Assembly: GCA_964016885.1 (NCBI GenBank) | Contig: OZ024747.1 | Location: 83,886,001 to 83,950,000, forward strand | Direction of reading: 5' to 3' | DNA length: 64,000 nucleotides | Source of the DNA: Eledone cirrhosa | Lineage: Eukaryota | Part shown: positions 13,962 to 55,885 of the stretch, one piece after another | Numbering within the stretch: the first letter of the stretch is position 1 | Layout of the letters: every line of letters begins with the position of its first letter | Notes under the pieces: generated by a model | Seen by the model: the letters and a program-made list of their open reading frames with translations, nothing else | Told to the model about the DNA's origin: nothing | The model's database searches: none | Translations under genes and position numbers: made by a program

Positions 13962-15113
13962 TCTATACATATATATAAAACTGTAGTTGTCTGTGTGTGT
14001 CCTCATTTTTGCAAAGTCTATACAAATCCACATTTCTACTCTGATTGACATCAAACTTGCATTTATATATTCTTTGCGGTCTAAAGATATTAACTGCAGC
14101 TTTTATTTTTCAATTTTCTGTTGTTAGGCGCCGGTTATCGATCTCCGTCGAGCCCTTATAATATCAGTCTGTATGTCTGGCTGTCTGCATTACGACATTA
14201 TTACAAACACATCATTGCTGACGTATTACGTTCGCTTTTTTCCGTTCATTGCCAGGGAACGTCTTCACGAACCAAAGTATCATCTACCTGTTTTCCTTCG
14301 GTTGCAAAGTTTTTCGAAATATTTACTTCTGCGTTCACAGATTGATTTTTTTTAGTTTTAGAAGATCCCGTTAAGGGTGAAAGCAGCGATTATTTGCTTA
14401 AACTTTAATCTGTTATTTTAATATATAATATAAGCGAGGCAAGCCAGCCCAGTTGCCACTTCTTGCCAATAAACCCTTTATGCGCGATTCATCTAACTGT
14501 AGACACGCAAATACCAACTAAACGGAGCGTTGACAAGAACGATGGCGAATGAATCTTCGAGGTAAGCAGTTTCCTCCCGAGCTGTTAGTTCACGCGGGAT
14601 TCTCTGCTACACCGTTTCGTAATACCGAACAACTGCTGGTCACTCCTTCTTCCAAAAGCCGTACAAAGCGGACATGTGCATCGGGCAGATGGATCGGGTG
14701 CAAATCTACACCAGGCCTACGTGAGAAATTCGCAAAGGACTGCACCGAGAGGGATAGAGAGAAAGAGTAACTTAGTGACAAGAGTGCGAATGAACTTTTG
14801 CGGTAAGTAGCCTACGCCTTACTGCTATGGCACTGGAACCTTCTGCCAACTTAACCTGTGACTTTCTCTTTCACATTTACTCCAATAGGCCAAAACAGAG
14901 GAGTATGAAAAGAAGGGGCTCAACAATACTTCTATGAACAATGCACGTAGACAGCTAAACTGTACTTTCAACTTCTTAATTTTCTCCAAATAAAACAAGT
15001 TTCCTGTCGGTATATTTTCGTGAACTTTTAACAGGCACTCACAAATAAACGTTTCTCATTGGAGGTGCTATTGCCAATGTTCTTATCCGTGCAACGCCGG
15101 GATACACTGCTAG
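13962..15113 (+). mobile_element. non-autonomous Helitron
   Basis: 5' A|TC tatacatatatataaaac; 3' ccgtgcaacgccggg hairpin followed by CTAG|T. Confidence 0.75.
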
Positions 15114-17906: not shown

Positions 17907-18452
17907 ATCACTGATGAAGGACTAAATTTATTCATATGTAACCCATTTGCAACCGCGCAGCACGCCATGTTTTTATATTCATATATAATTTCCCCCGGTG
18001 TGACCCGTCTGTTTCTTTCTTACTGCTTCCTCTTTTCTCTGTATCTCTCACTTCCTTTTACCCCCTCTAACAGTCACTCTCTCTGTTAGCCTTTTCCTCA
18101 CACTTTCACTCACTCACTCTCTGCTACTCCCTCTCCTACTTCCTCCCGTTAGACCTGTGCGAGATTCTTTCCTTACTCACATTTCGACCAGGTTTGATGG
18201 TCTTTATTCTCTCTCGTCCACAATTTCACAGAACTTATGTTCATCGATTTCAGGGACTTGACTCCTTCTTCCTCACTTTTCGTTGCATTACCATCTTTGT
18301 TTGTTTACTGTCTCGCGCGTTCCCCTTATTTACGTGTCCCAACGACTTTCTTTAGCCGTTGCTCGCACCAACCAGAAGTATATGGTCTTTAAAGCGATGA
18401 AATACCAATGAAGGCTGGAAGATCACTGATGAAGGACTAAATTTATTCATAT
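17907..18452 (+). mobile_element. 515-bp-unit element with 31-bp terminal direct repeat, in AT microsatellite
   Basis: atcactgatgaaggactaaatttattcatat at 17907-17937 and 18422-18452. Confidence 0.75.
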
Positions 18453-18580
18453 ATATATATATATTAATAAAAGGAATTCCAACTTTGTCTGATTTACTCG
18501 TTTTATTTACAATCCTTTAAAATTTATAATGGTATTAGAATGAAATAGTATGGTAGAATATTAAATGTTAAGTGTTAATT

Positions 18581-18617
18581 GAACAAGTACTTTCATGCTT
18601 TCGCAATCTTCAGGTTC
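18581..18617 (-). ncRNA. minimal type I hammerhead ribozyme (family A)
   Basis: GAAC-CTGAAGA-t tgc gaaa gca t-GAAA-GTAC-TT-GTTC, palindromic stem III. Confidence 0.85.
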
Positions 18618-18705
18618 ATAATGTGTGGTGACCGTCAAGTTTGCAATTTTCAACTGCAATTTTCAACAGTTGAAAATTGCAAACTTGACTGTCACCACAC
18701 ATTAT

Positions 18706-18742
18706 GAACCCGAAGATTGCGAAAGCATGAAAGTACTTGTTC
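18706..18742 (+). ncRNA. hammerhead motif, CCGAAGA core variant (family A)
   Basis: Same as 18581-18617 except U4->C. Confidence 0.7.
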
Positions 18743-19007
18743 AATTAACACTTAACATTTAATATTCTACCATACTATTTCATTATAATACCATTATACA
18801 TTTTAAAGGATTGTAAATAAAACGAGTAAATCAGACAAAGTTGGATTCCTTTTATTAATATAATCTTCTATACACAATCATACACACCCGTGTATATTTA
18901 TCTATCTATATATATATATGTATATATATATGTGCATATAGATTTATAGGAGCATACATACGAACATGTGTATATATGTTATACGTATAAGTGTGTTTAC
19001 ATATGCT

Positions 19008-22842: not shown

Positions 22843-22846
<4 letters not shown>

Positions 22847-22911
22847 CGAACAAAGCGGCGTTATAATAAGCATTCGCTAAACTGATACGTGCATATATGT
22901 ATGTGTACCTG

Positions 22912-23007
<96 letters not shown>

Positions 23008-23437
23008 CATGCTACTGTACGTCTGTATACATATATGTATGTACGTATACACACATACTTACATTTAAGTAAGTGCCATACTAAGAGTGAGAAATGAAAT
23101 TTCGTTTTCATTTTATTTCAACTTATCGTCTTCGGTATGCCTGACCGACTTAGCTCACTCGATATGCAAATTAGGCTGTTCAGCCGTTAATTTTCATAAG
23201 GAAAGTATATACTTTCGAACGTTCAACTATCTGGCAGATGGGTATACGGTGCTGATGATAGCTAACAAGCTGGAAACTAGTACATCGTTCCTGTGTCAGT
23301 GTTGAACAAAAAGGTGACGTGGTTGCCTTAACACCGTACGGCATACAAATTCAGGCTGTTCAGTTTGTTTACAAACGAACAAAGCGGCGTTATAATAAGC
23401 GTCCGCTAAACTGATACGTGCATATATGTATGTGTAC

Positions 23438-23510
<73 letters not shown>

Positions 23511-23623
23511 CATGCTACTGTACGTCTGTATACATATATGTATGTACATATACACACATACTTACATTTAAGTAAGTGCCGTACTAAGAGTGAGAAATGA
23601 AATTCGTTTTCATTTTATTTCAA

Positions 23624-23628
<5 letters not shown>
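22843..23628 (+). mobile_element. retrozyme-like tandem 1.5-mer (unit about 529 bp, family D)
   Basis: 22843-23126 repeated at 23372-23628; a single HHR lies between; ends in (TA)n. Confidence 0.8.
23247..23287 (+). ncRNA. minimal type I hammerhead ribozyme (family D)
   Basis: CGGTG-CTGATGA-t agct aaca agct g-GAAA-CTAG-TA-CATCG. Confidence 0.88.
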
Positions 23629-23700
<72 letters not shown>

Positions 23701-24110
23701 ATAATAATAAATGTGAAGACTAAAATCCGAAGAGGGCTCGATAAGGATAAATATATATCAAATATATAAGAACCGTAGAGGAATATTTATTAAAATAACA
23801 GGTTAAAGTTTAAGCAAAGAATCGGTGCTTTCACCCTTAACTGGAAAACAGCGATTCTTTGCTTAAACTTTAATCTGTTATTTTAATAAATATATATATA
23901 TATATAGTATTAGTTATACTATTTATGGTTATGTAAACACAAAACCTTAAGCAGTTGTAAGTATTTTACACACACCCTAAATAGTGGTAGGCAGTAATGT
24001 ATTACTACCTTATTACCAGTAAGTTAAGTAGCTCAATGTAAAAACATCAGATGATTTACAGAGCAGTTATATGAAATATAAGAATCAAAGAACTGTTCAA
24101 AACATTATTG

Positions 24111-24157
24111 TGCTTACAGCTGTTTCCTCCAAACCGAGGTTTGGATTCTTCGGAGCA
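24111..24157 (-). ncRNA. hammerhead motif of PLE1 (inverted arm)
   Basis: TGCT-CCGAAGA-a tccaaacc tc ggtttgga g-GAAA-CAGCTG-TA-AGCA. Confidence 0.8.
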
Positions 24158-25587
24158 ATTTATTAATGCATGGACAGTTATATGACCTCCTTTTCAGCTG
24201 AGAGACATACCAATACATATTCAAACATTGATACATATTCAAACATTGTGGGTCAACATTCATTACAGAATTTAGAGTGGCAGTACACACTTCGAGATTA
24301 CATTTATATTAATAGGTACAATCAAAAATCAAAGATATAGGTTAAAGTACAACATGAAGATAAGTGGTTATATAGTGCAAATGTTATATGTGTGGCACGC
24401 ATGTGCGTCTTGTTTATATAGTGTGGCAGAGAGATATGTGTGGTAGAGGCACTTAGGTAGGTAAATAAGAGTGTTAGGTTGGTAGATCTGGTGGCAAAGT
24501 CTTTATATGATTGATATAGTCTGCGTGTGGAGAAATATTATAAGCATTAAAGATAGTGCAAGCATTAAAAGTGTTATAAGTATTGGAGATGCACAGCGCA
24601 GGGATGTCAAGTAATTCATGTACTTCGGTATTTTCATGGTCAAGGGAGTGTATATTTCGATTATATGCCTTTCACATAATCCACGACAATCCAGTTAGAG
24701 ATCGTAGTCTGGTGTTCTTTAGTTCGATACAGGAGGTTGTTACGTTTCGAGAGACGCCATTGAATACCGGAAGTGTGTGTGTGGCTAAGGGGAGTTAATG
24801 CATGCGGGGAGGTAACTCTGGGGTTTCTATATCTAGCCATTAAAATGTGTCTCAATATAGACCCTAAATTCTATGGTGAGGTGCACCTTCCAAGAGAGAC
24901 TTTTAAAGCATAAAGTGTACTAACTATAGAGTAGTTTAACTAAATTATGCTGAAGGTGATCATATTATTATTAGGGTGGATTAACCCATCTCAAGGTGCT
25001 ACAAATGGAAATTATAGATGATGAGCGAGGATTCTAAATTAATGATCTCTATGGTTGTAGTCTGCTCATATGACCAGGCGCGGTGATTGCAGGATTGCTT
25101 CAGGACCCAATGATCTCTGGTAAGATCTGGGTCATCGCTTGCTACATTGGATGTCGAAAGATAATCATCCCCAGGCAGGCCAAAGGTCAATCCGCAGTCC
25201 TCGCGACCCCTCTCTGACCGTCAGATCATCCATATACGTACAACCCGCACGGCAGTTGCATTGCATTCACTCACTGCGTTCAGCAGCCTGGTCCTACTGG
25301 TCAACAGCGCTACTCGATTAAATCATTTTACATCTGTCTAAGGAAGGTGTTTCCTCTGCCCAACACCATCCAACCGATCAATTCATGCTCAAATTACCCT
25401 TAGAGCGGTGTAGTGCCGTCCAGGTGGGTGGATGTTGTCACACCTGCCGTAGAGGTATAAATGGGTATTTTCCCTGTGTGTAAAATACTTACAACTGCTT
25501 AAGGTTTTGTGTTTACATAACCATAAATAGTATAACTAATACTATTAACTGCTCCATATCGTTGAGCTGACATATAATATTGCCAAT

Positions 25588-28047
25588 ATGCTAATCAAAG
25601 ACCAACTCCCCATGTCAACCAAGAACATACCAATACCATCCAGGAATACATATGAGAAATTGCTGATCAACAGTGTAAATTCATTTATCAATAGAGTGAG
25701 ATGGAGGACATTCCATTATGATAGAAACAAATCTAACAACTTGAATAATACTAACAATTTTGACTCCTTCGGCTTTAAAACCTTTAAAAGCCCCCCTCAT
25801 AACACTCTACTTAACTCCTTTGAAAATGACCTAGTTAAACTAGTTAAGAACATTAAATACAATAAGCACCATATTAGAAGCAACACCTTCTTAAACAAAC
25901 TTAACACTTCTATTAGTGGATTCAAAACTAGTAATAAAATTATTGTACACGCAGATAAAACTAATAACATATACAGCCTAGATTATATTACTTATAGAAA
26001 GTTTATATATAATGAACTACATAAAAGCTACAAAAAAACCACCTTGAAAAACTTAGAAGATATTAATGTAGAGGGTTATAATATAGTGTCTAAACTAGGA
26101 CTACAGAGGCATACACAACCTTTCACTCCGAACCCCCCTAGATTCTCTCTGAAGGACCATAAGGAGAACTTCATCAGCAACTCCACGATAAGACTTATCT
26201 GCCCTTCCAAGTCCGACATTGGTATTATCAGCAAGAAGATTTTGGATAAAATCATCCCACAAATTAAACACAAGATACACCTTAAACAATGGGGAAATAC
26301 GGGTGAAGTAATTGAATGGTTTAAGGATATCAAGAATAATAAGAACAAAAAATTTATTCAATTTGATATCAATTCATACTACACCTCTATTTCCCCTATC
26401 CTATTAAATAAGGCACTTATCATGGCCATGACCAATAGCGACCTGACTAGAGCCCAGGTTGATGTCATCCTTGCGGCCCGTAAAACCATAATCACCTTCG
26501 AGGACCAACTATGGACACGCAAGGATACGCACAACAACTTCGACATAACCATGGGATCTAGTGACTCGGCGCAGGTCACTGATTTGGTCGGCCTATACCT
26601 CCTCAATGAAATCCATAAAGACCTCCCTTACCTCAACGGTGGTTTGTACCGCGATGATGCACTTCTACTCATAGAATATAAAAAATTTAATATAGAAAGA
26701 ACTAGAAAACAACTGCATAAGACATTCAAAAACTTTAACCTTAGTATCACCATGGACAAAAACACTAAAAATGTTAACTTCCTAGACGCCACACTATACC
26801 TAGACTCAAAAATATATACACCCTTCCATAAGCCTAATGAGAAACTTATTTACGTAGATACCAAGTCTAATCACCCTAGATCAATATTAAACTCTATCTC
26901 TAAGGGGGTGTCCAATAGAATCTCTAGTCTGTCCTATGACGCAAACATATTTAGCAAAAACTCACAATATTACAATCAAGCATTAGCTAGCTCCGGCCAT
27001 AATATAGAAATTGAGTTCCTACCTAAGAAAACACATAGCTACAACATCATCTCGCATAACATGTCCATGAGGAAATCTAATAATAGGAATAGCAACCACA
27101 AGTACACCAAAGCGGAGGGTGCCACCGGAAGTAACCATTACCATGGAAACTACTGTGAGGCCTTAGGAGGAAGCAACACACCAAACACTAAAAGCAAAAA
27201 TAGAAGAAGAAATAATACATTTTTCAACCCTCCTTTCAACCTAAATGTCTCCACCAACATACCTAGGGCTTTCTTCTCACTACTAGATAAAAACTTCCCT
27301 CTAGGACACAAGTACCACAACCTCTTAAACAAAAACACCATTAAAATCTCATACTCCACGACGCCTAACTTAGCATACCACATAGCTAGCAGCAATAATA
27401 GTAAAATTAGTTCTTACTTCCAACAAACAAAATCGCAACGGGATGCAAACCCTCTAAATACCACTGTAGCAAGCAACAATAGCAACGGCAGTAACAATAG
27501 AAATAACACTAGTATAAGTAATAACACCAGGGTTGTCAACCTGAACACCCAAAATCCTATACCCACCACACAGACTTCCGCATTGCATTATAACCAGCGG
27601 ACTAACGCACAGAATAATTGTAACTGTAGAGCTAATAGAACCTGCCCTTTAGATAAAAAATGCCTAACCAAGGATGTCATATACTCATGCACAGTCACGA
27701 CTAATAACTCTTCAGAAACCTATGTAGGCTCCACTTCTAACTGCTTCAAAATTAGATATAACTCGCACATCCACTCGTTCAAAAAGCACAGCCTAGCCAA
27801 CTCCACCTCACTTTCTAGCTACATTCACTATCTAAAATCTAAAAATAAACCATACACACTCAAATGGGAAGTGATAGGCAGCGCGACCTCGTACAAACCA
27901 CCTAATAAATTCTGTAACCTCTGTATACTAGAGACACACAATATTATCTTCTCCAACCGTAACCTACTTAACAAAAAATCTGAGGTGTTTGCAACTTGCC
28001 AGCACCGCCTCAGACATTCCTTCCAAAACTTTAAGCCCCATATATAG
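25588..28047 (+). CDS. PLE reverse transcriptase with C-terminal GIY-YIG endonuclease (819 aa)
   Basis: RT motifs FDINSYYTSI, TMGSSDSA, YRDD, NFLD; thumb SNHP; linker CNCRANRTCPLDKKC (CxCx5Cx5C); EN VIY...YVG..R...H, CNLC..E, LLN; no stops. Confidence 0.95.
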   Translation: MLIKDQLPMSTKNIPIPSRNTYEKLLINSVNSFINRVRWRTFHYDRNKSNNLNNTNNFDSFGFKTFKSPPHNTLLNSFENDLVKLVKNIKYNKHHIRSNTFLNKLNTSISGFKTSNKIIVHADKTNNIYSLDYITYRKFIYNELHKSYKKTTLKNLEDINVEGYNIVSKLGLQRHTQPFTPNPPRFSLKDHKENFISNSTIRLICPSKSDIGIISKKILDKIIPQIKHKIHLKQWGNTGEVIEWFKDIKNNKNKKFIQFDINSYYTSISPILLNKALIMAMTNSDLTRAQVDVILAARKTIITFEDQLWTRKDTHNNFDITMGSSDSAQVTDLVGLYLLNEIHKDLPYLNGGLYRDDALLLIEYKKFNIERTRKQLHKTFKNFNLSITMDKNTKNVNFLDATLYLDSKIYTPFHKPNEKLIYVDTKSNHPRSILNSISKGVSNRISSLSYDANIFSKNSQYYNQALASSGHNIEIEFLPKKTHSYNIISHNMSMRKSNNRNSNHKYTKAEGATGSNHYHGNYCEALGGSNTPNTKSKNRRRNNTFFNPPFNLNVSTNIPRAFFSLLDKNFPLGHKYHNLLNKNTIKISYSTTPNLAYHIASSNNSKISSYFQQTKSQRDANPLNTTVASNNSNGSNNRNNTSISNNTRVVNLNTQNPIPTTQTSALHYNQRTNAQNNCNCRANRTCPLDKKCLTKDVIYSCTVTTNNSSETYVGSTSNCFKIRYNSHIHSFKKHSLANSTSLSSYIHYLKSKNKPYTLKWEVIGSATSYKPPNKFCNLCILETHNIIFSNRNLLNKKSEVFATCQHRLRHSFQNFKPHI

Positions 28048-29490
28048 CAATGTCGGACTGGAACCTAACACCACATCTAGCATCAAACACCAGAGACACA
28101 CCCTATACTACATACCCAACACTAGCTGATCCATTATAACACAAACAACGACATCCCTCTGGAACCCTTCGCAGGGAAAATACCCATTTATACCTCTACG
28201 GCAGGTGTGACAACATCCACCCACCTGGACGGCACTACACCGCTCTAAGGGTAATTTGAGCATGAATTGATCGGTTGGATGGTGTTGGGCAGAGGAAACA
28301 CCTTCCTTAGACAGATGTAAAATGATTTAATCGAGTAGCGCTGTTGACCAGTAGGACCAGGCTGCTGAACGCAGTGAGTGAATGCAATGCAACTGCCGTG
28401 CGGGTTGTACGTATATGGATGATCTGACGGTCAGAGAGGGGTCGCGAGGACTGCGGATTGACCTTTGGCCTGCCTGGGGATGATTATCTTTCGACATCCA
28501 ATGTAGCAAGCGATGACCCAGATCTTACCAGAGATCATTGGGTCCTGAAGCAATCCTGCAATCACCGCGCCTGGTCATATGAGCAGACTACAACCATAGA
28601 GATCATTAATTTAGAATCCTCGCTCATCATCTATAATTTCCATTTGTAGCACCTTGAGATGGGTTAATCCACCCTAATAATAATATGATCACCTTCAGCA
28701 TAATTTAGTTAAACTACTCTATAGTTAGTACACTTTATGCTTTAAAAGTCTCTCTTGGAAGGTGCACCTCACCATAGAATTTAGGGTCTATATTGAGACA
28801 CATTTTAATGGCTAGATATAGAAACCCCAGAGTTACCTCCCCGCATGCATTAACTCCCCTTAGCCACACACACACTTCCGGTATTCAATGGCGTCTCTCG
28901 AAACGTAACAACCTCCTGTATCGAACTAAAGAACACCAGACTACGATCTCTAACTGGATTGTCGTGGATTATGTGAAAGGCATATAATCGAAATATACAC
29001 TCCCTTGACCATGAAAATACCGAAGTACATGAATTACTTGACATCCCTGCGCTGTGCATCTCCAATACTTATAACACTTTTAATGCTTGCACTATCTTTA
29101 ATGCTTATAATATTTCTCCACACGCAGACTATATCAATCATATAAAGACTTTGCCACCAGATCTACCAACCTAACACTCTTATTTACCTACCTAAGTGCC
29201 TCTACCACACATATCTCTCTGCCACACTATATAAACAAGACGCACATGCGTGCCACACATATAACATTTGCACTATATAACCACTTATCTTCATGTTGTA
29301 CTTTAACCTATATCTTTGATTTTTGATTGTACCTATTAATATAAATGTAATCTCGAAGTGTGTACTGCCACTCTAAATTCTGTAATGAATGTTGACCCAC
29401 AATGTTTGAATATGTATCAATGTTTGAATATGTATTGGTATGTCTCTCGGCTGAAAAGGAGGTCATATAACTGTCCATGCATTAATAAAT

Positions 29491-29537
29491 TGCTCCGAAG
29501 AATCCAAACCTCGGTTTGGAGGAAACAGCTGTAAGCA
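29491..29537 (+). ncRNA. hammerhead motif of PLE1 3' end
   Basis: Identical to 24111-24157; 4-bp stem I, palindromic stem III, predicted cleavage 29533|29534. Confidence 0.8.
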
Positions 29538-29575
29538 CAATAATGTTTTGAACAGTTCTTTGATTCTTATATTTC

Positions 29576-29627
<52 letters not shown>

Positions 29628-34438: not shown

Positions 34439-34659
34439 CGAGCCTGGGGAGTGCACAAATCACGGGGTTCATACCCCATTCTCTCTCTCTCTATATATAT
34501 ATATGTATTTATATGTATATATATATATGTATATATATATGTATATATATATTATATATATATGTAAACACATATATACATATATATATATATACACATA
34601 TACATATATATATATATATATAATATAAGATCAAAAGATGGTTAAAGGAGTTCCATGTA

Positions 34660-34726
34660 TTTTATTATGCGCATTTCAAAAACAAACATCATCATGCAAT
34701 AATATTTGTGTTTTCATCAGATAAAA
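34660..34726 (-). ncRNA. type I hammerhead ribozyme of PLE2
   Basis: TTTTAT-CTGATGA-long AT-rich stem II-GAAA-TGCGCA-TA-ATAAAA. Confidence 0.85.
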
Positions 34727-35722
34727 CAGGAGAACATGATATGAAGGCTAAAAAACACTTGTTGATAGTGCAGTTTTAAATCAACATATGAAAAGTGGTT
34801 TTAGATTGATGTGTGATATTGGGAAACATATTTTATTTAGAGAGGGGGGGGGGGATGAAAAGGGAGGGAGATGAGAGGGAGAGATGGGTGATAGAGAGAA
34901 AGAGATAGTTTTTATAACTGAGAGGAGATATATTGTTTTACATAGAGAGGTTGAAAACCGTTGGAAGATAATGTATAAATTAAAAATTTTGAAAATTAAC
35001 GAAGGGAGGATATGTGCGAGGAAAAAATATTTTATTTAGGGAGGGGGGGGGTGGAAAGGATGAAAAAAAGGGGGAGGAGATGAGAGTGAAGGTGGAGAGG
35101 GAGAGATGGGTGATAGAGAGAAAGTGATAGTTTTTATAACTGAGAAAAAGATATATTGTTTTAACATAGAGAGGTTGGGAACCGTTGGAAGATAATGTAT
35201 AAATTAAAGGAATTTGAAAATTAACGAAGGGAAATTATGTATGAAGATAGAGAGAAAAAAATAATAATTGTGGATGAATATTCTAACGTCAAAAAAAGAA
35301 ATGTATGTATTGTGGCAATTTCAAAATTAACGAAGAGAAAAATTATTAAGGTTTGTGTGTAGAAGGATTTGAGAAAAATAATGTGAAGTTAAAGTTTGTA
35401 TATTGAAGGAATTAATATATGCGAATAAAGAGTTGATATGTATTAATAATGAGTTCGTTGATGGGGAGAAAAAAATAATAAATTAAGGATGAAATTGAGA
35501 TTAAAAAGATTTATGATAGAGAGAAAAAATAATAATGATTGCGGATGAATATTCTAACGTCAAAACAACAAATGTATATGTTATGATAGAATGAGGGTAA
35601 TGAGTAAACAAGTAATATAGAGTGTATAATGCCCTTTAAAGTAAGGTAGATGGGTATATTTTAAAGAGGTGTATGTATATGTGCCTTTGAGAAAAGATTC
35701 TAAATTGATAAAGAATTGAATA

Positions 35723-36971
35723 TTAACTGTATACTTTGTGAAAAGTTCTATGGAATTTATGCAGGCAGATAGAAAACAAATCTGTGCGTCTATTTATTAT
35801 AGAATCTAGGTTAGAGATAATGGTAAATTTTTCATTTAGGCAGAGATTACAGATTTTAGATAGAGAGCTGTTCAAGTATGAGGATGCAGAAGAAATCTTC
35901 TTCCAAAAGATGGTATATTTAATGTTTTTGTCTTTTAAGGACCATATGAGTTCTGAGAGAGCAGTGTTAGTTCTTTTAAGTTTGTATTTGAAAGATGAAT
36001 GATGATTATAGAGACGAGCTTTAAAAGAGGTGGAAGTGGAGCCAAAATAGGTGAAGGAATTGGTGCTAGTTATAATTTTACATTCATAAATTAAGTTTTT
36101 ATCGAGACAATGGTTGTTGAGAGGACATTTATTTTTAATGCGGCAGTTGCAATTAGAGAGATTATTAATGAGTGATCTAGTGTTATCTATAGAAGGAATT
36201 GGATTGGAGAAGTTGTTTGCGATAGGAATAATAGGAATAATAGTTTCTTGATTTAGAGTTGGATTATGAACATTTAGCGAAGTTGTGTTTGACGTTGTAT
36301 TTGGGTTTACAGAAGTTAGCCTAGGGTTTACAATGACGTCGGGAGTACTATTACTGTTATTATGAAATTCAATATTGGAAGGAAGAGATTTAGTATTTAG
36401 TATTTTATTGTTGTGTTTAGAGATGATGTTGGAAATATTGGAGGATGTAGAATACGAAAATTTGATGGTGTGTTTGTTAAATATTTTACTATAGATATGT
36501 GAGGGAGGGAAGCATTTATTTAAGGCACTAAAAAATAATTTAGGAATATTGTTATTAATAGAGATGGAGAAAGGAGCATTATACCAGATTATGTTTTTGT
36601 ATCTAGGTCTTTTATTAAAATTATTGGAATGGTCATGATTAATTATTCTACTGTAAGTTTTTCTAGAATTTGTTTCTTTACTATATTTGATTTTATCTGG
36701 ATAGCCGGCTTTAGAAAGTGCGTTATTATAGTAATTGGCGTTAGCATCAAAGATGTTTTTATTAGAAGATATGTTAGATATTCTATTTCCAATATTATTA
36801 ACTATAGCATTCTTGATATTGGTAGGATGGTTAGATTTAAAGTTAACATAATTAAGGTTCTCATTGTTTTTATGGTAAGGGTAATATAGGCCAGTGTCAA
36901 GATTAAGAGATACGTCCAAGAAATTAGCTAGTTTGATACTAATATCAAATTCAATTTTTAGGTTATGTTGG
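35723..36971 (-). pseudogene. 5'-truncated PLE ORF: RT motifs D/E, thumb, CxC linker, GIY-YIG
   Basis: NFLDV, SNHP, CNCRIKNKCPLNNHC, LIY...YFG..FKARLYNH, CNLCLNEK; homologous to the C-terminal half of 25588-28047. Confidence 0.9.
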
Positions 36972-38162
36972 TATATACGTAATCTCTTTAACCAACATAA
37001 CCTGCATCCTCATACTTGAACAGCTCTCTATCTAAAATCTGTAATCTCTGCCTAAATGAAAAATTTACCATTATCTCTAACCTAGATTCTATAATAAATA
37101 GACGCACAGATTTGTTTTCTATCTGCCTGCATAAATTCCATAGAACTTTTCACAAAGTATACAGTTAATATTCAATTCTTTATCAATTTAGAATCTTTTC
37201 TCAAAGGCACATATACATACACCTCTTTAAAATATACCTATCTACCTTACTTTAAAGGGCATTATACACTCTATATTACTTGTTTACTCATTACCCTCAT
37301 TCTATCATAACATATACATTTGTTGTTTTGACGTTAGAATATTCATCCGCAATCATTATTATTTTTTCTCTCTATCATAAATCTTTTTAATCTCAATTTC
37401 ATCCTTAATTTATTATTTTTTTCTCCCCATCAACGAACTCATTATTAATACATATCAACTCTTTATTCGCATATATTAATTCCTTCAATATACAAACTTT
37501 AACTTCACATTATTTTTCTCAAATCCTTCTACACACAAACCTTAATAATTTTTCTCTTCGTTAATTTTGAAATTGCCACAATACATACATTTCTTTTTTT
37601 GACGTTAGAATATTCATCCACAATTATTATTTTTTTCTCTCTATCTTCATACATAATTTCCCTTCGTTAATTTTCAAATTCCTTTAATTTATACATTATC
37701 TTCCAACGGTTCCCAACCTCTCTATGTTAAAACAATATATCTTTTTCTCAGTTATAAAAACTATCTCTTTCTCTCTATCACCCATCTCTCCCTCTCCACC
37801 TTCACTCTCATCTCCTCCCCCTTTTTTCATCCTTTCCACCCCCCCTCCCTAAATAAAATATTTTTTCCTCGCACATATCCTCCCTTCGTTAATTTTCAAA
37901 ATTTTTAATTTATACATTATCTTCCAACGGTTTTCAACCTCTCTATGTAAAACAATATATCTCCTCTCAGTTATAAAAACTATCTCTTTCTCTCTATCAC
38001 CCATCTCTCCCTCTCATCTCCCTCCCTTTTCATCCTTCCCCCCCCTCTCTAAATAAAATATGTTTCCCAATATCACACATCAATCTAAAACCACTTTTCA
38101 TATGTTGATTTAAAACTGCACTATCCACAAGTGTTTTTTAGCCTTCATATCATGTTCTCCTG

Positions 38163-38229
38163 TTTTATCTGATGAAAACACAAATATTATTGCATGATGA
38201 TGTTTGTTTTTGAAATGCGCATAATAAAA
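38163..38229 (+). ncRNA. type I hammerhead ribozyme of PLE2 (inverted arm)
   Basis: Reverse complement of 34660-34726; predicted cleavage 38223|38224. Confidence 0.85.
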
Positions 38230-38355
38230 TACATGGAACTCCTTTAACCATCTTTTGATCTTATATTATGCATACTCCAGTCCTACAAACTGTAGAGTGC
38301 TTCTTATCCGATATCTGCATTGCTTTATTGTACTACAATAAAACTCACCTCCTAC

Positions 38356-39228
<873 letters not shown>

Positions 39229-39455
39229 TCTTATAGTCTTGCCAGGAGTAACTGTCTATCATGTGTTCTTATTGAAGTAACAAATAAAAACTTGACGTTA
39301 ATGAAATACTCTAACCCAGAACTGACGTACCTTTCTTAGAGTGGGGGATGGGCGTTCACCCCCTTTACCCTCATAAACGAATACTAGCATTGGTTAAAGT
39401 GTGTCACCTACTTGTCTGGGGTTATTTACACCGATGGGGTTTCTATTTAACTTTG

Positions 39456-42400
39456 CAACCCCTGCACACTATCACTCAGTATCACACACAGACACACTCA
39501 TGTTATATGTAACCCCTGCACACTATCACTCAGTATCACACACAGACACACTCACAGTTATATGTAACCCCTGCACACTATCACTGAGTATCACACACAG
39601 ACACACTCACAGTTATATGTAACCCCTGCACACTATCACTCAGTATCACACACAGACACACTCACAGTTATATGTAACCCCTGCACACTATCACTCAGTA
39701 TCACACACAGACACACTCACAGTTATATATAACCCCTGCACACTATCACTCAGTATCACACACAGACACACTCACAGTTATATGTAACCCCTGCACACTA
39801 TCACTCAGTATCACACACAGACACACTCACAGTTATATGTAACCCCTGCACACTATCACTCAGTATCACACACAGACACACTCACAGTTATATATAACCC
39901 CTGCACACTATCACTCAGTATCACACACAGACACACTCACAGTTATATATAACCCCTGCACACTATCACTCAGTATCACACAGACACACTCACAGTAATA
40001 TGCAACCCCTGCACACTATCACTCAGTATCACACAGACACACTCACAGTTATATGTAACCCCTGCACACTATCACTCAGTATCACACACAGACACACTCA
40101 CAGTTATATGTAACCCCTGCACACTATCACTCAGTATCACACACAGACACACTCACAGTTATATATAACCCCTGCACACTATCACTCAGTATCACACACA
40201 GACACACTCACAGTTATATGTAACCCCTGCACACTATCACTCAGTATCACACAGACACACTCATGTTATATGTAACCCCTGCACACTATCACTCAGTATC
40301 ACACACAGACACACTCACAGTTATATGTAACCCCTGCACACTATCACTCAGTATCACACACAGACACACTCACAGTTATATATAACCCCTGCACACTATC
40401 ACTCAGTATCACACACAGACACACTCACAGTTATATGTAACCCCTGCACACTATCACTCAGTATCACACAGACACACTCATGTTATATGTAACCCCTGCA
40501 CACTATCACTCAGTATCACACACAGACACACTCACAGTTATATGTAACCCCTGCACACTATCACTCAGTATCACACACAGACACACTCACAGTTATATAT
40601 AACCCCTGCACACTATCACTCAGTATCACACACAGACACACTCACAGTTATATGTAACCCCTGCACACTATCACTCAGTATCACACAGACACACTCACAG
40701 TTATATATAACCCCTGCACACTATCACTCAGTATCACACAGACACACTCATGTTATATGTAACCCCTGCACACTATCACTGAGTATCACACACAGACACA
40801 CTCACAGTTATATGTAACCCCTGCACACTATCACTCAGTATCACACACAGACACACTCACAGTTATATGTAACCCCTGCACACTATCACTCAGTATCACA
40901 CACAGACACACTCATGTTATATGTAACCCCTGCACACTATCACTCAGTATCACACAGACACACTCACAGTAATATGCAACCCCTGCACACTATCACTCAG
41001 TATCACACAGACACACTCACAGTTATATATAACCCCTGCACACTATCACTCAGTATCACACACAGACACACTCACAGTTATATGTAACCCCTGCACACTA
41101 TCACTCAGTATCACACACAGACACACTCACAGTTATATGTAACCCCTGCACACTATCACTCAGTATCACACACAGACACACTCATGTTATATGTAACCCC
41201 TGCACACTATCACTCAGTATGACACACAGACACACTCACAGTTATATGTAACCCCTGCACACTATCACTCAGTATCACACACAGACACACTCACAGTTAT
41301 ATGTAACCCCTGCACACTATCACTCAGTATCACACACAGACACACTCACAGTTATATGTAACCGCACACACTATCACTCAGTATCACACACAGACGCTCT
41401 CACAGTTATATGTAACCCCTGCACACTATCACTCAGTATCACACACAGACACACTCATGTTATATGTAACCCCTGCACACTATCACTCAGTATCACACGC
41501 AGACACACTCACAGTTATATGTAACCGCACACACTATCACTCAGTATCACACACAGACACACTCACAGTTATATGTAACCCCTGCACACTATCACTGAGT
41601 ATCACACACAGACACACTCACAGTTATATGTAACCCCTGCACACTATCACTCAGTATCACACACAGACACACTCACAGTTATATGTAACCGCACACACTA
41701 TCACTCAGTATCACACACAGACACTCTCACAGTTATATGTAACCCCTCACACTATCACTCAGTATCACACACAGACACACTCATGTTATATGTAACCCCT
41801 GCACACTATCACTCAGTATCACACAGACACACTCACAGTTATATGTAACCCCTGCACACTATCACTCAGTATCACACACAGACACTCTCACAGTTATATG
41901 TAACCGCACACACTATCACTCAGTATCACACACAGACACTCTCACAGTTATATGTAACCGCACACACTATCACTCAGTATCACACACAGACACTCTCACA
42001 GTTATATGTAACCCCTGCACACTATCACTCAGTATCACACAGACACACTCACAGTTATATGTAACCCCTGCACACTATCACTCAGTATCACACACAGACA
42101 CACTCACAGTTATATGTAACCCCTGCACACTATCACTCAATATCACACACAGACACACTCACAGTTATATGTAACCCCTGCACACTATCACTCAGTATCA
42201 CACACAGACACACTCACAGTTATATGTAACCCCTGCACACTATCACTCAGTATCACACACAGACACTCTCACAGTTATATGTAACCGCACACACTATCAC
42301 TCAGTATCACACAGACACACTCACAGTTATATGTAACCCCTGCACACTATCACTCAATATCACACACAGACACACTCACAGTTATATATAACCCCTGCAC

Positions 42401-45400
42401 ACTATCACTCAGTATCACACACAGACACACTCACAGTTATATGTAACCGCACACACTATCACTCAGTATCACACACAGACACACTCACAGTTATATGTAA
42501 CCCCTGCACACTATCACCCAGTATCACACACAGACACACTCACAGTTATATGTAACCCCTGCACACTATCACTCAGTATCACACACAGACACACTCACAT
42601 TTATATGTAACCCCTGCACACTATCACTCAGTATCACACACAGACACACTCACAGTTATATGTAACCCCTGCACACTATCACTCAGTATCACACACAGAC
42701 ACTCTCACAGTTATATGTAACCCCTGCACACTATCACTCAATATCACACACAGACACACTCACAGTTATATATAACCCCTGCACACTATCACTCAATATC
42801 ACACACAGACACACTCACATTTATATGTAACCCCTGCACACTATCACTCAGTATCACACACAGACACACTCACAGTTATATGTAACCCCTGCACACTATC
42901 ACTCAGTATCACACACAGACACTCTCACAGTTATATGTAACCCCTGCACACTATCACTCAGTATCACACACAGACACACTCACAGTTATATGTAACCCCT
43001 GCACACTATCACTCAGTATCACACACAGACACTCTCACAGTTATATGTAACCCCTGCACACTATCACTCAGTATCACACACAGACACTCTCACAGTTATA
43101 TGTAACCCCTGCACACTATCACTCAGTATCACACACAGACACACTCACAGTTATATGTAACCCCTGCACACTATCACTCAGTATCACACACAGACACTCT
43201 CACAGTTATATGTAACCCCTGCACACTATCACTCAATATCACACACAGACACACTCACAGTTATATATAACCCCTGCACACTATCACTCAATATCACACA
43301 CAGACACACTCACAGTTATATGTAACCCCTGCACACTATCACTCAGTATCACACAGACACACTCACAGTTATATGTAACCCCTGCACACTATCACTCAGT
43401 ATCACACAGACACACTCACAGTTATATGTAACCCCTGCACACTATCACTCAGTATCACACACAGACACACTCACATTTATATGTAACCCCTGCACACTAT
43501 CACTCAGTATCACACAGACACACTCACAGTTATATGTAACCCCTGCACACTATCACTCAGTATCACACACAGACACACTCACAGTTATATGTAACCCCTG
43601 CACACTATCACTCAGTATCACACACAGACACACTCACATTTATATGTAACCCCTGCACACTATCACTCAGTATCACACAGACACACTCACAGTTATATGT
43701 AACCCCTGCACACTATCACTCAGTATCACACACAGACACACTCACAGTTATATGTAACCCCTGCACACTATCACTCAGTATCACACACAGACACACTCAC
43801 AGTTATATGTAACCCCTGCACACTATCACTCAGTATCACACAGACACACTCACAGTTATATGTAACCCCTGCACACTATCACTCAGTATCACACAGACAC
43901 ACTCACAGTTATATGTAACCCCTGCACACTATCACTCAGTATCACACACAGACACACTCACAGTTATATGTAACCCCTGCACACTATCACTCAGTATCAC
44001 ACACAGACACACTCACAGTTATATGTAACCCCTGCACACTATCACTCAGTATCACACACAGACACACTCACAGTTATATGTAACCCCTGCACACTATCAC
44101 TCAGTATCACACACAGACACACTCACAGTTATATGTAACCCCTGCACACTATCACTCAATATCACACACAGACACACTCACAGTTATATGTAACCCCTGC
44201 ACACTATCACTCAATATCACACACAGACACACTCACAGTTATATGTAACCCCTGCACACTATCACTCAGTATCACACACAGACACACTCACAGTTATATG
44301 TAACCCCTGCACACTATCACTCAGTATCACACACAGACACACTCACATTTATATGTAACCCCTGCACACTATCACTCAGTATCACACACAGACACACTCA
44401 CATTTATATGTAACCCCTGCACACTATCACTCAGTATCACACAGACACACTCACAGTTATATGTAACCCCTGCACACTATCACTCAGTATCACACACAGA
44501 CACACTCACAGTTATATGTAACCCCTGCACACTATCACTCAGTATCACACACAGACACACTCACAGTTATATGTAACCCCTGCACACTATCACTCAGTAT
44601 CACACACAGACACACTCACAGTTATATGTAACCCCTGCACACTATCACTCAGTATCACACACAGACACACTCACATTTATATGTAACCCCTGCACACTAT
44701 CACTCAGTATCACACAGACACACTCACAGTTATATGTAACCCCTGCACACTATCACTCAGTATCACACACAGACACACTCACAGTTATATGTAACCCCTG
44801 CACACTATCACTCAGTATCACACACAGACACACTCACATTTATATGTAACCCCTGCACACTATCACTCAGTATCACACAGACACACTCACAGTTATATGT
44901 AACCCCTGCACACTATCACTCAGTATCACACAGACACACTCACAGTTATATATAACCCCTGCACACTATCACTCAGTATCACACACAGACACACTCACAT
45001 TTATATGTAACCCCTGCACACTATCACTCAGTATCACACACAGACACACTCACATTTATATGTAACCCCTGCACACTATCACTCAGTATCACACAGACAC
45101 ACTCACAGTTATATGTAACCCCTGCACACTATCACCCAGTATCACACACAGACACACTCACAGTTATATGTAACCCCTGCACACTATCACTCAATATCAC
45201 ACACAGACACACTCACATTTATATGTAACCCCTGCACACTATCACTCAGTATCACACACAGACACACTCACATTTATATGTAACCCCTGCACACTATCAC
45301 TCAGTATCACACAGACACACTCACAGTTATATGTAACCCCTGCACACTATCACTCAGTATCACACACAGACACACTCACATTTATATGTAACCCCTGCAC

Positions 45401-48400
45401 ACTATCACTCAGTATCACACACAGACACACTCACAGTTATATGTAACCCCTGCACACTATCACTCAGTATCACACACAGACACACTCACAGTTATATGTA
45501 ACCCCTGCACACTATCACTCAGTATCACACACAGACACACTCACAGTTATATGTAACCCCTGCACACTATCACTCAGTATCACACACAGACACACTCACA
45601 TTTATATGTAACCCCTGCACACTATCACTCAGTATCACACACAGACACACTCACATTTATATGTAACCCCTGCACACTATCACTCAGTATCACACAGACA
45701 CACTCACAGTTATATGTAACCCCTGCACACTATCACCCAGTATCACACACAGACACACTCACAGTTATATGTAACCCCTGCACACTATCACTCAATATCA
45801 CACACAGACACACTCACATTTATATGTAACCCCTGCACACTATCACTCAGTATCACACACAGACACACTCACATTTATATGTAACCCCTGCACACTATCA
45901 CTCAGTATCACACAGACACACTCACAGTTATATGTAACCCCTGCACACTATCACTCAGTATCACACACAGACACACTCACATTTATATGTAACCCCTGCA
46001 CACTATCACTCAGTATCACACAGACACACTCACAGTTATATGTAACCCCTGCACACTATCACTCAGTATCACACACAGACACACTCACAGTTATATGTAA
46101 CCCCTGCACACTATCACTCAGTATCACACAGACACACTCACAGTTATATGTAACCCCTGCACACTATCACTCAGTATCACACACAGACACACTCACAGTT
46201 ATATGTAACCCCTGCACACTATCACTCAGTATCACACACAGACACACTCACAGTTATATGTAACCCCTGCACACTATCACTCAGTATCACGCACAGACAC
46301 ACTCACAGTTATATGTAACCCCTGCACACTATCACTCAGTATCACACACAGACACACTCACATTTATATGTAACCCCTGCACACTATCACTCAGTATCAC
46401 ACACAGACACACTCACAGTTATATGTAACCCCTGCACACTATCACTCAGTATCACACACAGACACACTCACAGTTATATGTAACCCCTGCACACTATCAC
46501 TCAGTATCACGCACAGACACACTCACAGTTATATGTAACCCCTGCACACTATCACTCAGTATCACACACAGACACACTCACAGTTATATGTAACCCCTGC
46601 ACACTATCACTCAGTATCACGCACAGACACACTCACAGTTATATGTAACCCCTGCACACTATCACTCAGTATCACGCACAGACACACTCACAGTTATATG
46701 TAACCCCTGCACACTATCACTCAGTATCACACACAGACACACTCACAGTTATATGTAACCCCTGCACACTATCACTCAGTATCACACAGACACACTCACA
46801 GTTATATGTAACCCCTGCACACTATCACTCAGTATCACACACAGACACACTCACAGTTATATGTAACCGCACACACTATCACTCAGTATCACACACAGAC
46901 ACACTCACAGTTATATGTAACCCCTGCACACTATCACTGAGTATCACACACAGACACACTCACAGTTATATGTAACCCCTGCACACTATCACTCAGTATC
47001 ACACACAGACACACTCACAGTTATATGTAACCCCTGCACACTATCACTCAGTATCACACACAGACACACTCACAGTTATATGTAACCCCTGCACACTATC
47101 ACTCAGTATCACACACAGACACACTCACAGTTATATGTAACCTCTGCACACTATCACTCAGTATCACACACAGACACACTCACAGTTATATGTAACCTCT
47201 GCACACTATCACTCAGTATCACACACAGACACACTCACAGTTATATGTAACCCCTGCACACTATCACTCAATATCACACACAGACACACTCACAGTTATA
47301 TGTAACCGCACACACTATCACTCAGTATCACACACAGACACACTCACAGTTATATGTAACCCCTGCACACTATCACTGAGTATCACACACAGACACACTC
47401 ACAGTTATATGTAACCCCTGCACACTATCACTCAGTATCACACACAGACACACTCACAGTTATATGTAACCCCTGCACACTATCACTCAGTATCACACAC
47501 AGACACACTCACAGTTATATGTAACCCCTGCACACTATCACTCAGTATCACACACAGACACACTCACAGTTATATGTAACCTCTGCACACTATCACTCAG
47601 TATCACACACAGACACACTCACAGTTATATGTAACCTCTGCACACTATCACTCAGTATCACACACAGACACACTCACAGTTATATGTAACCCCTGCACAC
47701 TATCACTCAGTATCACACACAGACACACTCACAGTTATATGTAACCCCTGCACACTATCACTCAGTATCACACACAGACACACTCACAGTTATATGTAAC
47801 CTCTGCACACTATCACTCAGTATCACACACAGACACACTCACAGTTATATGTAACCGCACACACTATCACTCAGTATCACACACAGACACACTCACAGTT
47901 ATATGTAACCTCTGCACACTATCACTCAGTATCACACACAGACACACTCACAGTTATATGTAACCGCACACACTATCACTCAGTATCACACACAGACACA
48001 CTCACAGTTATATGTAACCCCTGCACACTATCACTCAATATCACACACAGACACACTCACAGTTATATGTAACCGCACACACTATCACTCAGTATCACAC
48101 ACAGACACACTCACAGTTATATGTAACCCCTGCACACTATCACTGAGTATCACACACAGACACACTCACAGTTATATGTAACCCCTGCACACTATCACTC
48201 AGTATCACACACAGACACACTCACAGTTATATGTAACCCCTGCACACTATCACTCAGTATCACACACAGACACACTCACAGTTATATGTAACCCCTGCAC
48301 ACTATCACTCAGTATCACACACAGACACACTCACAGTTATATGTAACCTCTGCACACTATCACTCAGTATCACACACAGACACACTCACAGTTATATGTA

Positions 48401-51400
48401 ACCTCTGCACACTATCACTCAGTATCACACACAGACACACTCACAGTTATATGTAACCCCTGCACACTATCACTCAGTATCACACACAGACACACTCACA
48501 GTTATATGTAACCCCTGCACACTATCACTGAGTATCACACACAGACACACTCACAGTTATATGTAACCTCTGCACACTATCACTCAGTATCACACACAGA
48601 CACACTCACAGTTATATGTAACCGCACACACTATCACTCAGTATCACACACAGACACACTCACAGTTATATGTAACCTCTGCACACTATCACTCAGTATC
48701 ACACACAGACACTCTCACAGTTATATGTAACCCCTGCACACTATCACTCAGTATCACACACAGACACACTCATGTTATATGTAACCCCTGCACACTATCA
48801 CTCAGTATCACACAGACACACTCACAGTTATATGTAACCTCTGCACACTATCACTCAGTATCACACACAGACACACTCACAGTTATATGTAACCCCTCAC
48901 ACTATCACTCAGTATCACACACAGACACACTCACAGTTATATGTAACCCCTGCACACTATCACTGAGTATCACACACAGACACACTCACAGTTATATGTA
49001 ACCCCTCACACTATCACTCAGTATCACACACAGACACACTCACAGTTATATGTAACCCCTGCACACTATCACTCAGTATCACACACAGACACACTCATGT
49101 TATATGTAACCCCTGCACACTATCACTCAGTATCACACAGACACACTCACAGTTATATGTAACCCCTCACACTATCACTCAGTATCACACACAGACACAC
49201 TCACAGTTATATGTAACCCCTCACACTATCACTCAGTATCACACACAGACACACTCACAGTTATATGTAACCCCTGCACACTATCACTCAGTATCACACA
49301 CAGACACTCTCACAGTTATATGTAACCCCTGCACACTATCACTCAGTATCACACACAGACACACTCACAGTTATATGTAACCCCTCACACTATCACTCAG
49401 TATCACACACAGACACACTCACAGTTATATGTAACCCCTGCACACTATCACTGAGTATCACACACAGACACACTCACAGTTATATGTAACCCCTGCACAC
49501 TATCACTCAGTATCACACACAGACACACTCACAGTTATATGTAACCCCTGCACACTATCACTCAGTATCACACACAGACACACTCACAGTTATATGTAAC
49601 CCCTCACACTATCACTCAGTATCACACACAGACACACTCACAGTTATATGTAACCGCACACACTATCACTCAGTATCACACACAGACACACTCACAGTTA
49701 TATGTAACCCCTGCACACTATCACTGAGTATCACACACAGACACACTCACAGTTATATGTAACCGCACACACTATCACTCAGTATCACACACAGACACAC
49801 TCACAGTTATATGTAACCGCACACACTATCACTCAGTATCACACACAGACACACTCACAGTTATATGTAACCCCTGCACACTATCACTCAGTATCACACA
49901 CAGACACACTCACAGTTATATGTAACCCCTGCACACTATCACTCAATATCACACACAGACACACTCACAGTTATATGTAACCCCTGCACACTATCACTCA
50001 ATATCACACACAGACACACTCACAGTTATATGTAACCCCTGCACACTATCACTCAGTATCACACACAGACACACTCACAGTTATATGTAACCCCTGCACA
50101 CTATCACTCAATATCACACACAGACACACTCACAGTTATATGTAACCCCTGCACACTATCACTCAATATCACACACAGACACACTCACAGTTATATGTAA
50201 CCCCTGCACACTATCACTGAGTATCACACACAGACACACTCACAGTTATATGTAACCGCACACACTATCACTCAGTATCACACACAGACACACTCACAGT
50301 TATATGTAACCGCACACACTATCACTCAGTATCACACACAGACACACTCACAGTTATATGTAACCCCTGCACACTATCACTCAGTATCACACACAGACAC
50401 ACTCACAGTTATATGTAACCCCTGCACACTATCACTCAATATCACACACAGACACACTCACAGTTATATGTAACCCCTGCACACTATCACTCAATATCAC
50501 ACACAGACACACTCACAGTTATATGTAACCCCTGCACACTATCACTGAGTATCACACACAGACACACTCACAGTTATATGTAACCCCTGCACACTATCAC
50601 TGAGTATCACACACAGACACACTCACAGTTATATGTAACCCCTGCACACTATCACTCAGTATCACACACAGACACTCTCACAGTTATATGTAACCCCTGC
50701 ACACTATCACTCAGTATCACACACAGACACACTCACAGTTATATGTAACCCCTGCACACTATCACTCAGTATCACACACAGACACACTCACAGTTATATG
50801 TAACCCCTGCACACTATCACTCAGTATCACACACAGACACACTCACAGTTATATGTAACCCCTGCACACTATCACTCAGTATCACACAGACACACTCACA
50901 GTTATATGTAACCCCTGCACACTATCACTCAGTATCACACACAGACACACTCACAGTTATATGTAACCCCTGCACACTATCACTCAATATCACACACAGA
51001 CACACTCACAGTTATATGTAACCCCTGCACACTATCACTCAGTATCACACAGACACACTCACAGTTATATGTAACCCCTGCACACTATCACTCAATATCA
51101 CACACAGACACACTCACAGTTATATGTAACCCCTGCACACTATCACTCAGTATCACACAGACACACTCACAGTTATATGTAACCCCTGCACACTATCACT
51201 CAGTATCACACAGACACTCTCACAGTTATATGTAACCCCTGCACACTATCACTCAGTATCACACACAGACACTCTCACAGTTATATGTAACCCCTGCACA
51301 CTATCACTCAATATCACACACAGACACACTCACAGTTATATGTAACCCCTGCACACTATCACTCAGTATCACACACAGACACACTCACAGTTATATGTAA

Positions 51401-54400: not shown

Positions 54401-54710
54401 ACTATCACTCAGTATCACACACAGACACACTCACAGTTATATGTAACCGCACACACTATCACTTAGTATCACACACAGACACACTCACAGTTATATGTAA
54501 CCCCTGCACACTATCACTCAGTATCACACACAGACACACTCACAGTTATATGTAACCGCACACACTATCACTTAGTATCACACACAGACACACTCACAGT
54601 TATATGTAACCCCTGCACACTATCACTCAGTATCACACACAGACACACTCACAGTTATATGTAACCCCTGCACACTATCAATCAGTATCACACACAGACA
54701 GACAGACAGT
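39456..54710. repeat. 55-bp satellite array, about 15.2 kb (about 280 monomers)
   Basis: Unit aacccctgcacactatcactcagtatcacacacagacacactcacagttatatgt, period 55 with 53-bp deletion variants. Confidence 0.98.
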
Positions 54711-55717: not shown

Positions 55718-55885
55718 GTAGGAGGTGAGTTTTATTGTAGTACAATAAAGCAATGCAGATATCGGATAAGAAGCACTCTACAGTTTGTAGGACTGGAGTA
55801 TACATAATATATAATATATAATATCAAAATGCGCATAATAAAATACATGGAACTCTTTTAACCATCTTTTGATATCATATATTAT
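55718..55885. mobile_element. tiny inverted remnant of the PLE2 family
   Basis: 55718-55810 is the reverse complement of about 38262-38355; 55828-55885 matches 38213-38268 directly. Confidence 0.8.

Follow-up and report, generated by a model that had tools for sequence, protein, structure and literature searches.

The Eledone insertion, its protein and its family

This study examined a 64,000-nucleotide (nt) window of the Eledone cirrhosa genome (assembly GCA_964016885.1, OZ024747.1:83,886,001-83,950,000, forward strand), the window being the whole stretch of DNA that was analysed and the reference for all positions below. At 23904-29579 it carries a two-armed (inverted) insertion of a Penelope-like element (PLE), with (TA)n on both flanks. 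The insertion, whose arms stop at two different 3' ends designated E1 and E2, is composed of the following features (ORF, open reading frame; RT, reverse transcriptase or reverse transcription; UTR, untranslated region).

23890-23903: left (TA)n target flank
23904-25476, minus strand: E1-ended arm, 1573 nt, with a 5'-truncated 3'UTR, hammerhead, E2, hairpin 1 and tail; stops at E1 in (TA)n
23904-24068, minus strand: 165-nt tail lying between fixed ends E2 (24069) and E1 (23904), with 25475-25545 repeating its final 71 nt
24031-24067, minus strand: hairpin 1 (GCTC stem, TT bulge, GAGC), immediately 3' of E2; predicted RT start signal
24107-24159, minus strand: hammerhead motif, inverted copy
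25475-25476: head-to-head inversion junction, with an overlap of 2 nt
25475-29579, plus strand: E2-ended arm, 4105 nt, with a partial 5'UTR, ORF, 3'UTR, hammerhead and E2
25548-25567, plus strand: hairpin 2 (the same GCTC...TT GAGC motif as hairpin 1), immediately 3' of the internal E1 position 25545
25588-28047, plus strand: ORF of 819 aa, with PLE RT, CxCX5C linker and C-terminal GIY-YIG
28048-29579, plus strand: 3'UTR, 1.5 kb; its 28172-29579 portion is repeated in the inverted arm
29489-29541, plus strand: type I hammerhead motif with U4C core, A.G at the base of stem II and palindromic stem III; predicted cut after 29533
29580-29586, plus strand: 7-nt reiteration of the E2 end ahead of the (TA)n flank; likely priming slippage
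29587-29620: right (TA)n target flank

The inverted arms 24069-25476 and 28172-29579 are each 1408 nt long and differ solely at 24199/29449, and 25475-25545, read in reverse complement, is reproduced exactly (71 nt) at 23904-23974. The 94 nt at 23975-24068 occur once in the window and complete a unit of 4199 nt (4105 + 94). The near-identical arms and permuted unit of about 4.2 kb described in a first-pass annotation were thus borne out, the permutation being the known PLE combination of pseudo-long terminal repeat (pseudo-LTR) and tail. The T at 24199 is private to the E1 arm, with C in nearly all raw reads there (three public runs). No reads of the locus's own inversion junction (25475/25476) were seen in four public runs, which neither supports nor refutes the junction. 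Sharp read starts and loose ends in three RAD runs (24157, 24613, 24801/24804 and 24870) were rejected as library cut sites because they are positioned on GCATGC and AATT, which we take to be the library enzyme sites.

The ORF runs from its ATG through 819 codons without a stop and contains RT motifs A (QFDINSYY) and C (YRDD), in agreement with the earlier description of an uninterrupted, catalytically complete frame. The GIY-YIG endonuclease (EN) motifs (VIY...YVG, R, E and N) are C-terminal in the translation, so that a single ORF joins a telomerase-related RT to GIY-YIG, the combination that marks an EN+ PLE. Two disordered N/S/T-rich inserts occupy approximately residues 482-540 and 621-677. 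Protein homologs numbered 302 at E<=0.001 among 7995 scored candidates, with a best identity of 46%, and the structure model (pLDDT 79.9) returned telomerase RTs as its top three Foldseek matches. No Pfam match above cut-off was obtained for either PLE ORF in the window, and a dimer prediction on residues 1-480 scored 0.00, which is not evidence for or against a dimer.

Assignment to the Hydra clade, also proposed in the first pass, is supported by its defining motifs, which PMC8557442 gives as RW[KR], DKT, CxCX5C, CxxC/CxH, absence of CCHH and a (TA)n target. The RWK-type motif is present as RWR and the ORF contains GFKT (GxKF/Y is not conserved, as in the Hydra clade). DKG is replaced by DKT in ADKTNN; among the 120 listed homologs DK[TS] occurs in 115 and ADKG in none. 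The linker reads CNCRANRTC (CxCX5C), CNLC precedes the EN glutamate, CQH follows the EN asparagine, and the absence of CCHH was judged by eye; neither a Naiad CxC domain nor an IFD is found. By-eye comparison also placed the RT blocks in agreement with the Hydra alignment published in PMC8557442. In a quick tree of 27 rows, drawn from 20 of the 120 homologs plus five DKG-type PLEs and one non-LTR RT of the same genome, without published Hydra families and with long branches that meet, the window RT fell among DKT-type sequences (a 7-row group with support 100), separate from the DKG group (98). DKG-type PLE families with long ORFs, labelled Neptune-like and Poseidon-like from their motifs, were observed at L191-L201 of the same genome. 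The element is a new family within the known Hydra clade of PLEs.

The family is young, as the first pass had supposed, with the 21 best full-length matches 99.3-100% identical to the window copy and insertions differing from each other by ~0.9%. It comprises roughly a thousand recent copies, each end being represented about 900 times, and the near-full-length ones are marked by 132 exact internal E1 sites. The ORF is intact in 26 of 31 full-length copies (21/21 picked by similarity and 5/10 picked by coordinate). Across 25 ORFs of equal length, shared changes are 10 synonymous to 8 non-synonymous, against an expectation of 1 to 2.68 (p 0.01), and singletons are 21 synonymous to 35 non-synonymous (p 0.06). 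The window ORF carries the private change P199S; the other family copies and 11 of 14 aligned homologs have P in that column. Reads 98-100% identical to the family (over L002:1501-5790) were also present at low depth in runs X1, X5 and X7, labelled with three other organism codes; they fit close relatives, mixed samples or recent transfer alike.

Two fixed ends and a two-site reading

Family members terminate at two fixed 3' ends that lie 165 nt apart, E1 (window 25545/23904) about 211 nt and E2 (29579/24069) about 46 nt behind the predicted ribozyme cut. Exact genome-wide counts gave 854 occurrences of E1 followed by (TA)n, 619 of E2 followed by (TA)n and 272 of E2 with a 9-nt reiteration, and none for the reversed controls. 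Direct and inverted pseudo-LTRs with a one-sided tail are present in the family. One-armed insertions exist for E1 and for E2, some of them bearing a mini-arm of the opposite type (L064, L097 and L116), and reiteration occurs at both end types.

Two-armed insertions combine one end of each type. In C1 to 392.8 Mb, 209 listed ends yielded 42 outward-facing pairs closer than 15 kb, comprising 41 E1+E2, 0 E1+E1 and 1 E2+E2 (p ~1e-11); the single apparent E2+E2 pair (L118) is in fact E2+E1 and contains an internal reiteration. Among 92 adjacent inverted arm pairs from 120 insertions, a set from which L031-L060 were excluded as partial windows, 86 were E1+E2, none were of the same type and six were unresolved. 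Two of these six were later assigned to E1+E2, and 20 further stretches, several cut by their edge, contained no same-type pair. Internal 9-nt E2 reiterations of one and four units were observed in the E1-primed arms of L009 and L118, respectively, on the first pass over E2 and not on the second.

In the template, each end is followed by a bulged hairpin (GCTC...TT GAGC) that occurs nowhere else in the window. Combined with the pairing of ends, this suggests that a two-armed insertion likely arises by copying into the two strands of a cut (TA)n, with the element's enzyme starting RT at fixed E1 and E2 on one, probably circular, RNA. In the proposed sequence of events, the GIY-YIG endonuclease would nick both strands of (TA)n, each target 3'-OH would base-pair with a short TA stretch at either E1 or E2, and hairpins 1 and 2 would position the RT at the two start sites. 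The E1-primed RT would then either halt near E2 or displace the E2 cDNA and continue, and the two cDNA ends would be joined via microhomology. Earlier publications already cover permuted units, tails, two start sites and a circular template. No prior report of the one-end-each rule, the twin hairpins or the both-arm junction evidence described below was found in the literature covered, which excludes most subscription papers, older PLE reviews included.

Source and form of the template

The arms of one insertion derive from a single source. In a comparison of 73 young insertions, in which pairs are partly non-independent, arms of the same insertion had 195 shared non-majority variants vs 7 recurrent differences (61 segment pairs), whereas between insertions 304 variants were shared and 3190 differed (840 pairs). 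Direct pseudo-LTR pairs within one insertion gave 75 shared variants vs 3 recurrent differences. In long pairs, 51 of 183 shared variants were private to one insertion within the sample, and the arms of the window copy share nine, two of them private. Two insertions carry one-off derivatives in both arms. The junction of a 507-nt derivative occurs four times genome-wide, all in L213 (three in the E2 arm, one in the E1 arm) and letter-identical; that of a 502-nt derivative occurs twice, once in each arm of L083. These derivatives of about 500 nt are non-coding deletion forms that retain the hammerhead and both hairpins. Splicing was ruled out as the source of the 507-nt form, the junction of which lacks GT-AG. 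The tandem arrays themselves (L213:4094-6258 and L083:8353-9520) may be a snapshot of retrozyme birth.

These patterns indicate that the two arms were probably copied from a single molecule. A dimer that loads two RNA molecules from the same source locus, using one at E1 and the other at E2, would account for overlapping arms without strand displacement and also for shared variants, and a PLE dimer has been predicted (PMC11167929). By itself it leaves the never-alike ends unexplained, as well as one-off junctions exclusive to both arms of one insertion, and it is considered improbable.

The first pass had further claimed that the 3' and 5' ends were continuous in the template. In the window alone an inherited partial tandem would produce an identical picture; family-level data back the claim better. 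Tandem seams of other copies are in exact 4199 register in 52 of 53 cases, no indel was found in 4045-4075 among 189 segments spanning the predicted hammerhead cut (1.9 expected), and one arm of L211 is longer than two full units. Partial tandems and one-sided tails are standard in PLEs according to PMC8557442 and PMC3846280, and the insertions could be nothing special: read-through RNA from inherited partial tandems would be primed at E1 on read-through (UA)n, and the repeats would have been homogenised afterwards by gene conversion or by polishing of the assembly. L211 shows that one locus of more than two units exists. This explanation is nevertheless very doubtful, since direct repeats within an insertion (19 differences/13,207 nt) are as alike as inverted arms (53/49,367 nt) when compared with the divergence between insertions, suggesting that each insertion likely produces them anew. 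Arms also retain private mismatches, and the one-each rule and the presence of hairpin 2 behind E1 are left unexplained.

The position of hairpin 2 bears on the two-site reading directly. No copied 3' end ever includes it, because it is situated 3' of E1, and an E1-primed copy with a full ORF therefore needs a template whose 3' end continues into the 5' end. If hairpin 2 is required for starting at E1, a linear transcript would be usable only when its locus holds two full units; just one pair of sites 4199 nt apart is present in the first 100 of the 132 listed internal E1 sites.

Two-site priming could instead occur on linear RNA, with RT starting at E1 or E2 in the 5' pseudo-LTR, running off, and jumping by homology to the 3' pseudo-LTR or end to end. 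Template jumps are seen in copies L073, L102, L138 and L219, the homogenised direct repeats are equally accounted for, and the hammerhead has a variant core; ribozyme cleavage is also dispensable in vitro for Poseidon_Ac, which tolerates an uncleaved hammerhead (PMC11167929). The 5' ends show no single-site pile-up, either at the hammerhead cut or at a capped start (arm ends number 9 in 4055-4080 vs 12 in 4020-4045). Together with the indel-free predicted cut, the letter-identity of the L213 junction in all four occurrences and the repeated exact jumps that the L211 arm would demand, this makes the linear route rather unlikely. A closed circle, as proposed for PLEs in 2014 (PMC4209133), is slightly favoured over a homology-guided jump as the form of the joined template.

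The hammerhead itself was recognised by eye, and its stem II folds. The motif reported in the first pass is present in both arms, whereas the canonical core CUGANGA is not; the core is CCGAAGA. This U4C form is found in 190 of 197 segments, and the canonical U form occurs 26 times genome-wide. Rfam detected no hammerhead in 23700-29580 at E<=10, nor in a search of the whole window, and the matches from both were discarded as miRNA noise driven by microsatellites. The hammerhead here is a predicted variant rather than an absent ribozyme.

Several observations weigh against the reading of two starts on one circular RNA. The U4C core reduces hammerhead activity in vitro (PMC3088659), which would weaken circle formation via self-cleavage, and both mini-circle junctions (L213 and L083) are located away from the ribozyme cut site; taken together, these argue that self-cleavage is not the sole route to a circle. 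Shared variants establish a common source, which need not be one molecule. Some of them could come from gene conversion between arms or from polishing of the assembly, and the source loci of both one-off junctions could be absent from the assembly. For 35 long inverted pairs the partner arm was the closest sequence in 21, with another insertion as close in 8 and closer in 6. E1 arms that stop at E2 are weakly enriched (150-190 nt holds 6, the following bin 5), and a collision of the E1-primed RT at E2 was set aside as a weak signal. The mechanism is read from insertion structure alone, and the setting of start sites by the hairpins is a predicted role. Finally, arm endpoints are near-equal in 16 of the 86 pairs (1.2 expected), largely at local palindromes such as hammerhead stem II, which fold-back fits equally well; equal endpoints were accordingly discarded, as ambiguous, as proof of one molecule.

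Fold-back self-priming has been proposed from palindromes at inverted junctions (PMC3846280), and would here create the inverted arm from one cDNA, or from an antisense template, making E2 a resolution site rather than a start. Fold-back alone fails because in 37 of the 86 pairs, the window copy among them, the E2 arm exceeds the E1 arm in length and holds sequence absent from it. An E2-first version would be unable to produce the tail, and E2 ends are found alone, with the reiterations typical of priming. This origin is thus regarded as highly improbable, and priming at both E1 and E2 is retained as the likely account.

A broader reading is a genuine but tentative possibility. PLE insertion might be a concerted two-strand reaction, unlike target-primed reverse transcription (TPRT) of long interspersed nuclear elements, in which two RT active sites, positioned by twin hairpins 165 nt apart, would act on one covalently closed RNA circle and extend both nicked target strands, with simultaneous rolling-circle, strand-displacing synthesis and telomerase-like repeat addition at the start. 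Any circle with both hairpins, ribozyme-cut or not, would be copied alike, and retrozymes could originate in this way.

Neighbouring elements, known systems and significance

The forward copy in the window begins 113 nt before the ATG and ends at E2; it has a single sense hammerhead and lacks a hairpin downstream of its ORF. For these reasons it is likely not a template under either the circular or the linear model; it is likely a dead end in that respect, and could supply protein. Its description in the first pass as the best candidate driver for the small hammerhead elements was not supported. By blastn, neither the tail nor the 5'UTR has any above-chance similarity to the remainder of the window (best match 13 nt, E 0.39), the small elements have their own ends, and the layout just described, together with the private P199S, further weakens the claim. 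Mobilisation of retrozymes by PLEs has been proposed (PMC7229834 and bioRxiv 10.64898/2026.07.22.740005), and the present family itself yields hammerhead derivatives of ~500 nt. The small hammerhead elements and a second Hydra-type family possess ends of their own with a related ACTC...GAGT hairpin, and cross-mobilisation of the small elements is possible.

Several further elements were observed in the window. A second, unrelated Hydra-type two-armed insertion lies at 34627-38355, with an ORF fragment at 35723-37009 (minus strand) containing CxCX5C and CxH. Its layout is that of the main element, with the short end at left and, at right, a tail with an ACTC...TA GAGT hairpin (38274); a solo piece of the tail of this family lies at ~55775-55823. 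Immediately left of the main element, a different family has contributed a small two-armed (TA)n insertion (23697-23893 and 14366-14432), and the same family flanks L025, L211 and L218, suggesting that (TA)n hosts gather several families. At 22844-23630 there is a retrozyme-like partial tandem of ~530 nt with a canonical hammerhead (23252) and internal (TA)n, without similarity to the PLE family. At 11340-11510 (minus strand) lies what is likely the tail of a further Hydra-type family, in which an ACTC...TT GAGT hairpin and a terminal (TA)n come after a canonical hammerhead (11485). A palindrome of ~410 nt (18448-18860) has a hammerhead-like CTGAAGA at 18613 (minus strand) in one arm and CCGAAGA in the other, and a 15-kb minisatellite with a 55-nt unit and >200 copies fills 39350-54700.

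The family resembles the Hydra-clade members of PMC8557442 (Hydra-1_Obim, Hydra-2_Amil and Penelope-13_HM) in having a hammerhead in the 3' part and an inverted 5'-truncated copy. The published 3' end of Hydra-2_Amil, from coral, also shows, by eye, a GCTC...TT GAGC hairpin behind the hammerhead. The family differs from the Hydra families described there in its 4199-nt unit (under ~3 kb being a tendency of the clade rather than a criterion), its tail of 165 nt (30-40 in those families), its 1.5-kb 3'UTR and its copy number of about a thousand. Its protein of 819 aa with two N-rich inserts compares with ~700 aa in most matches, and its core CCGAAGA with CUGANGA in all Hydra rows of File S2, where Penelope-3_NV is listed with the core only.

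In L1 twin priming, two target strands prime on one RNA to give a 5' inversion, with a random second site and non-overlapping pieces. In contrast, both sites are fixed here and arms overlap by up to 4 kb. Parallels are also found in Poseidon_Ac (PAc) of Anolis, which in TPRT in vitro nicks and extends both strands of an AT-rich target and has two internal start sites that bound the tail (PMC11167929). The Poseidon_Ac sites lie inside the ORF, with one stem-loop, no strand difference and no target homology, whereas here they are in the 5'UTR, each with its own hairpin, one per insertion end and with TA microhomology. Circular-RNA models of PLEs and non-LTR retrozymes (PMC4209133, PMC7229834 and bioRxiv 10.64898/2026.07.22.740005) share the more-than-unit head-to-tail copies and small tandem hammerhead derivatives; unlike in those models, the derivatives here can be traced to an autonomous family, are in both arms of one insertion and have junctions off the ribozyme cut. 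The Penelope families of Adineta vaga likewise have a tail on one inverted pseudo-LTR, junction palindromes, N-rich ORF inserts and permuted copies, but differ in their low copy number, their canonical clade and the self-priming invoked for them in PMC3846280.

The origin of the inverted pseudo-LTRs and one-sided tail of PLEs and their use of circular RNA are stated as open questions in PMC11167929 and PMC8557442. Taken by itself, the element extends a known clade by one family. Its contribution is an autonomous element that is both intact and abundant, has a long tail and comes with natural mini-templates. With many intact, near-identical ORFs, two mapped starts 165 nt apart, two candidate cis signals and natural 500-nt mini-templates, the model is directly testable in vitro. 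Telomerase has the PLE RTs as its sister group; hairpin-set starts and repeat addition at the start would therefore bear on telomerase origins. For the PLEs themselves, the two-site reading would explain the odd shape of these elements.

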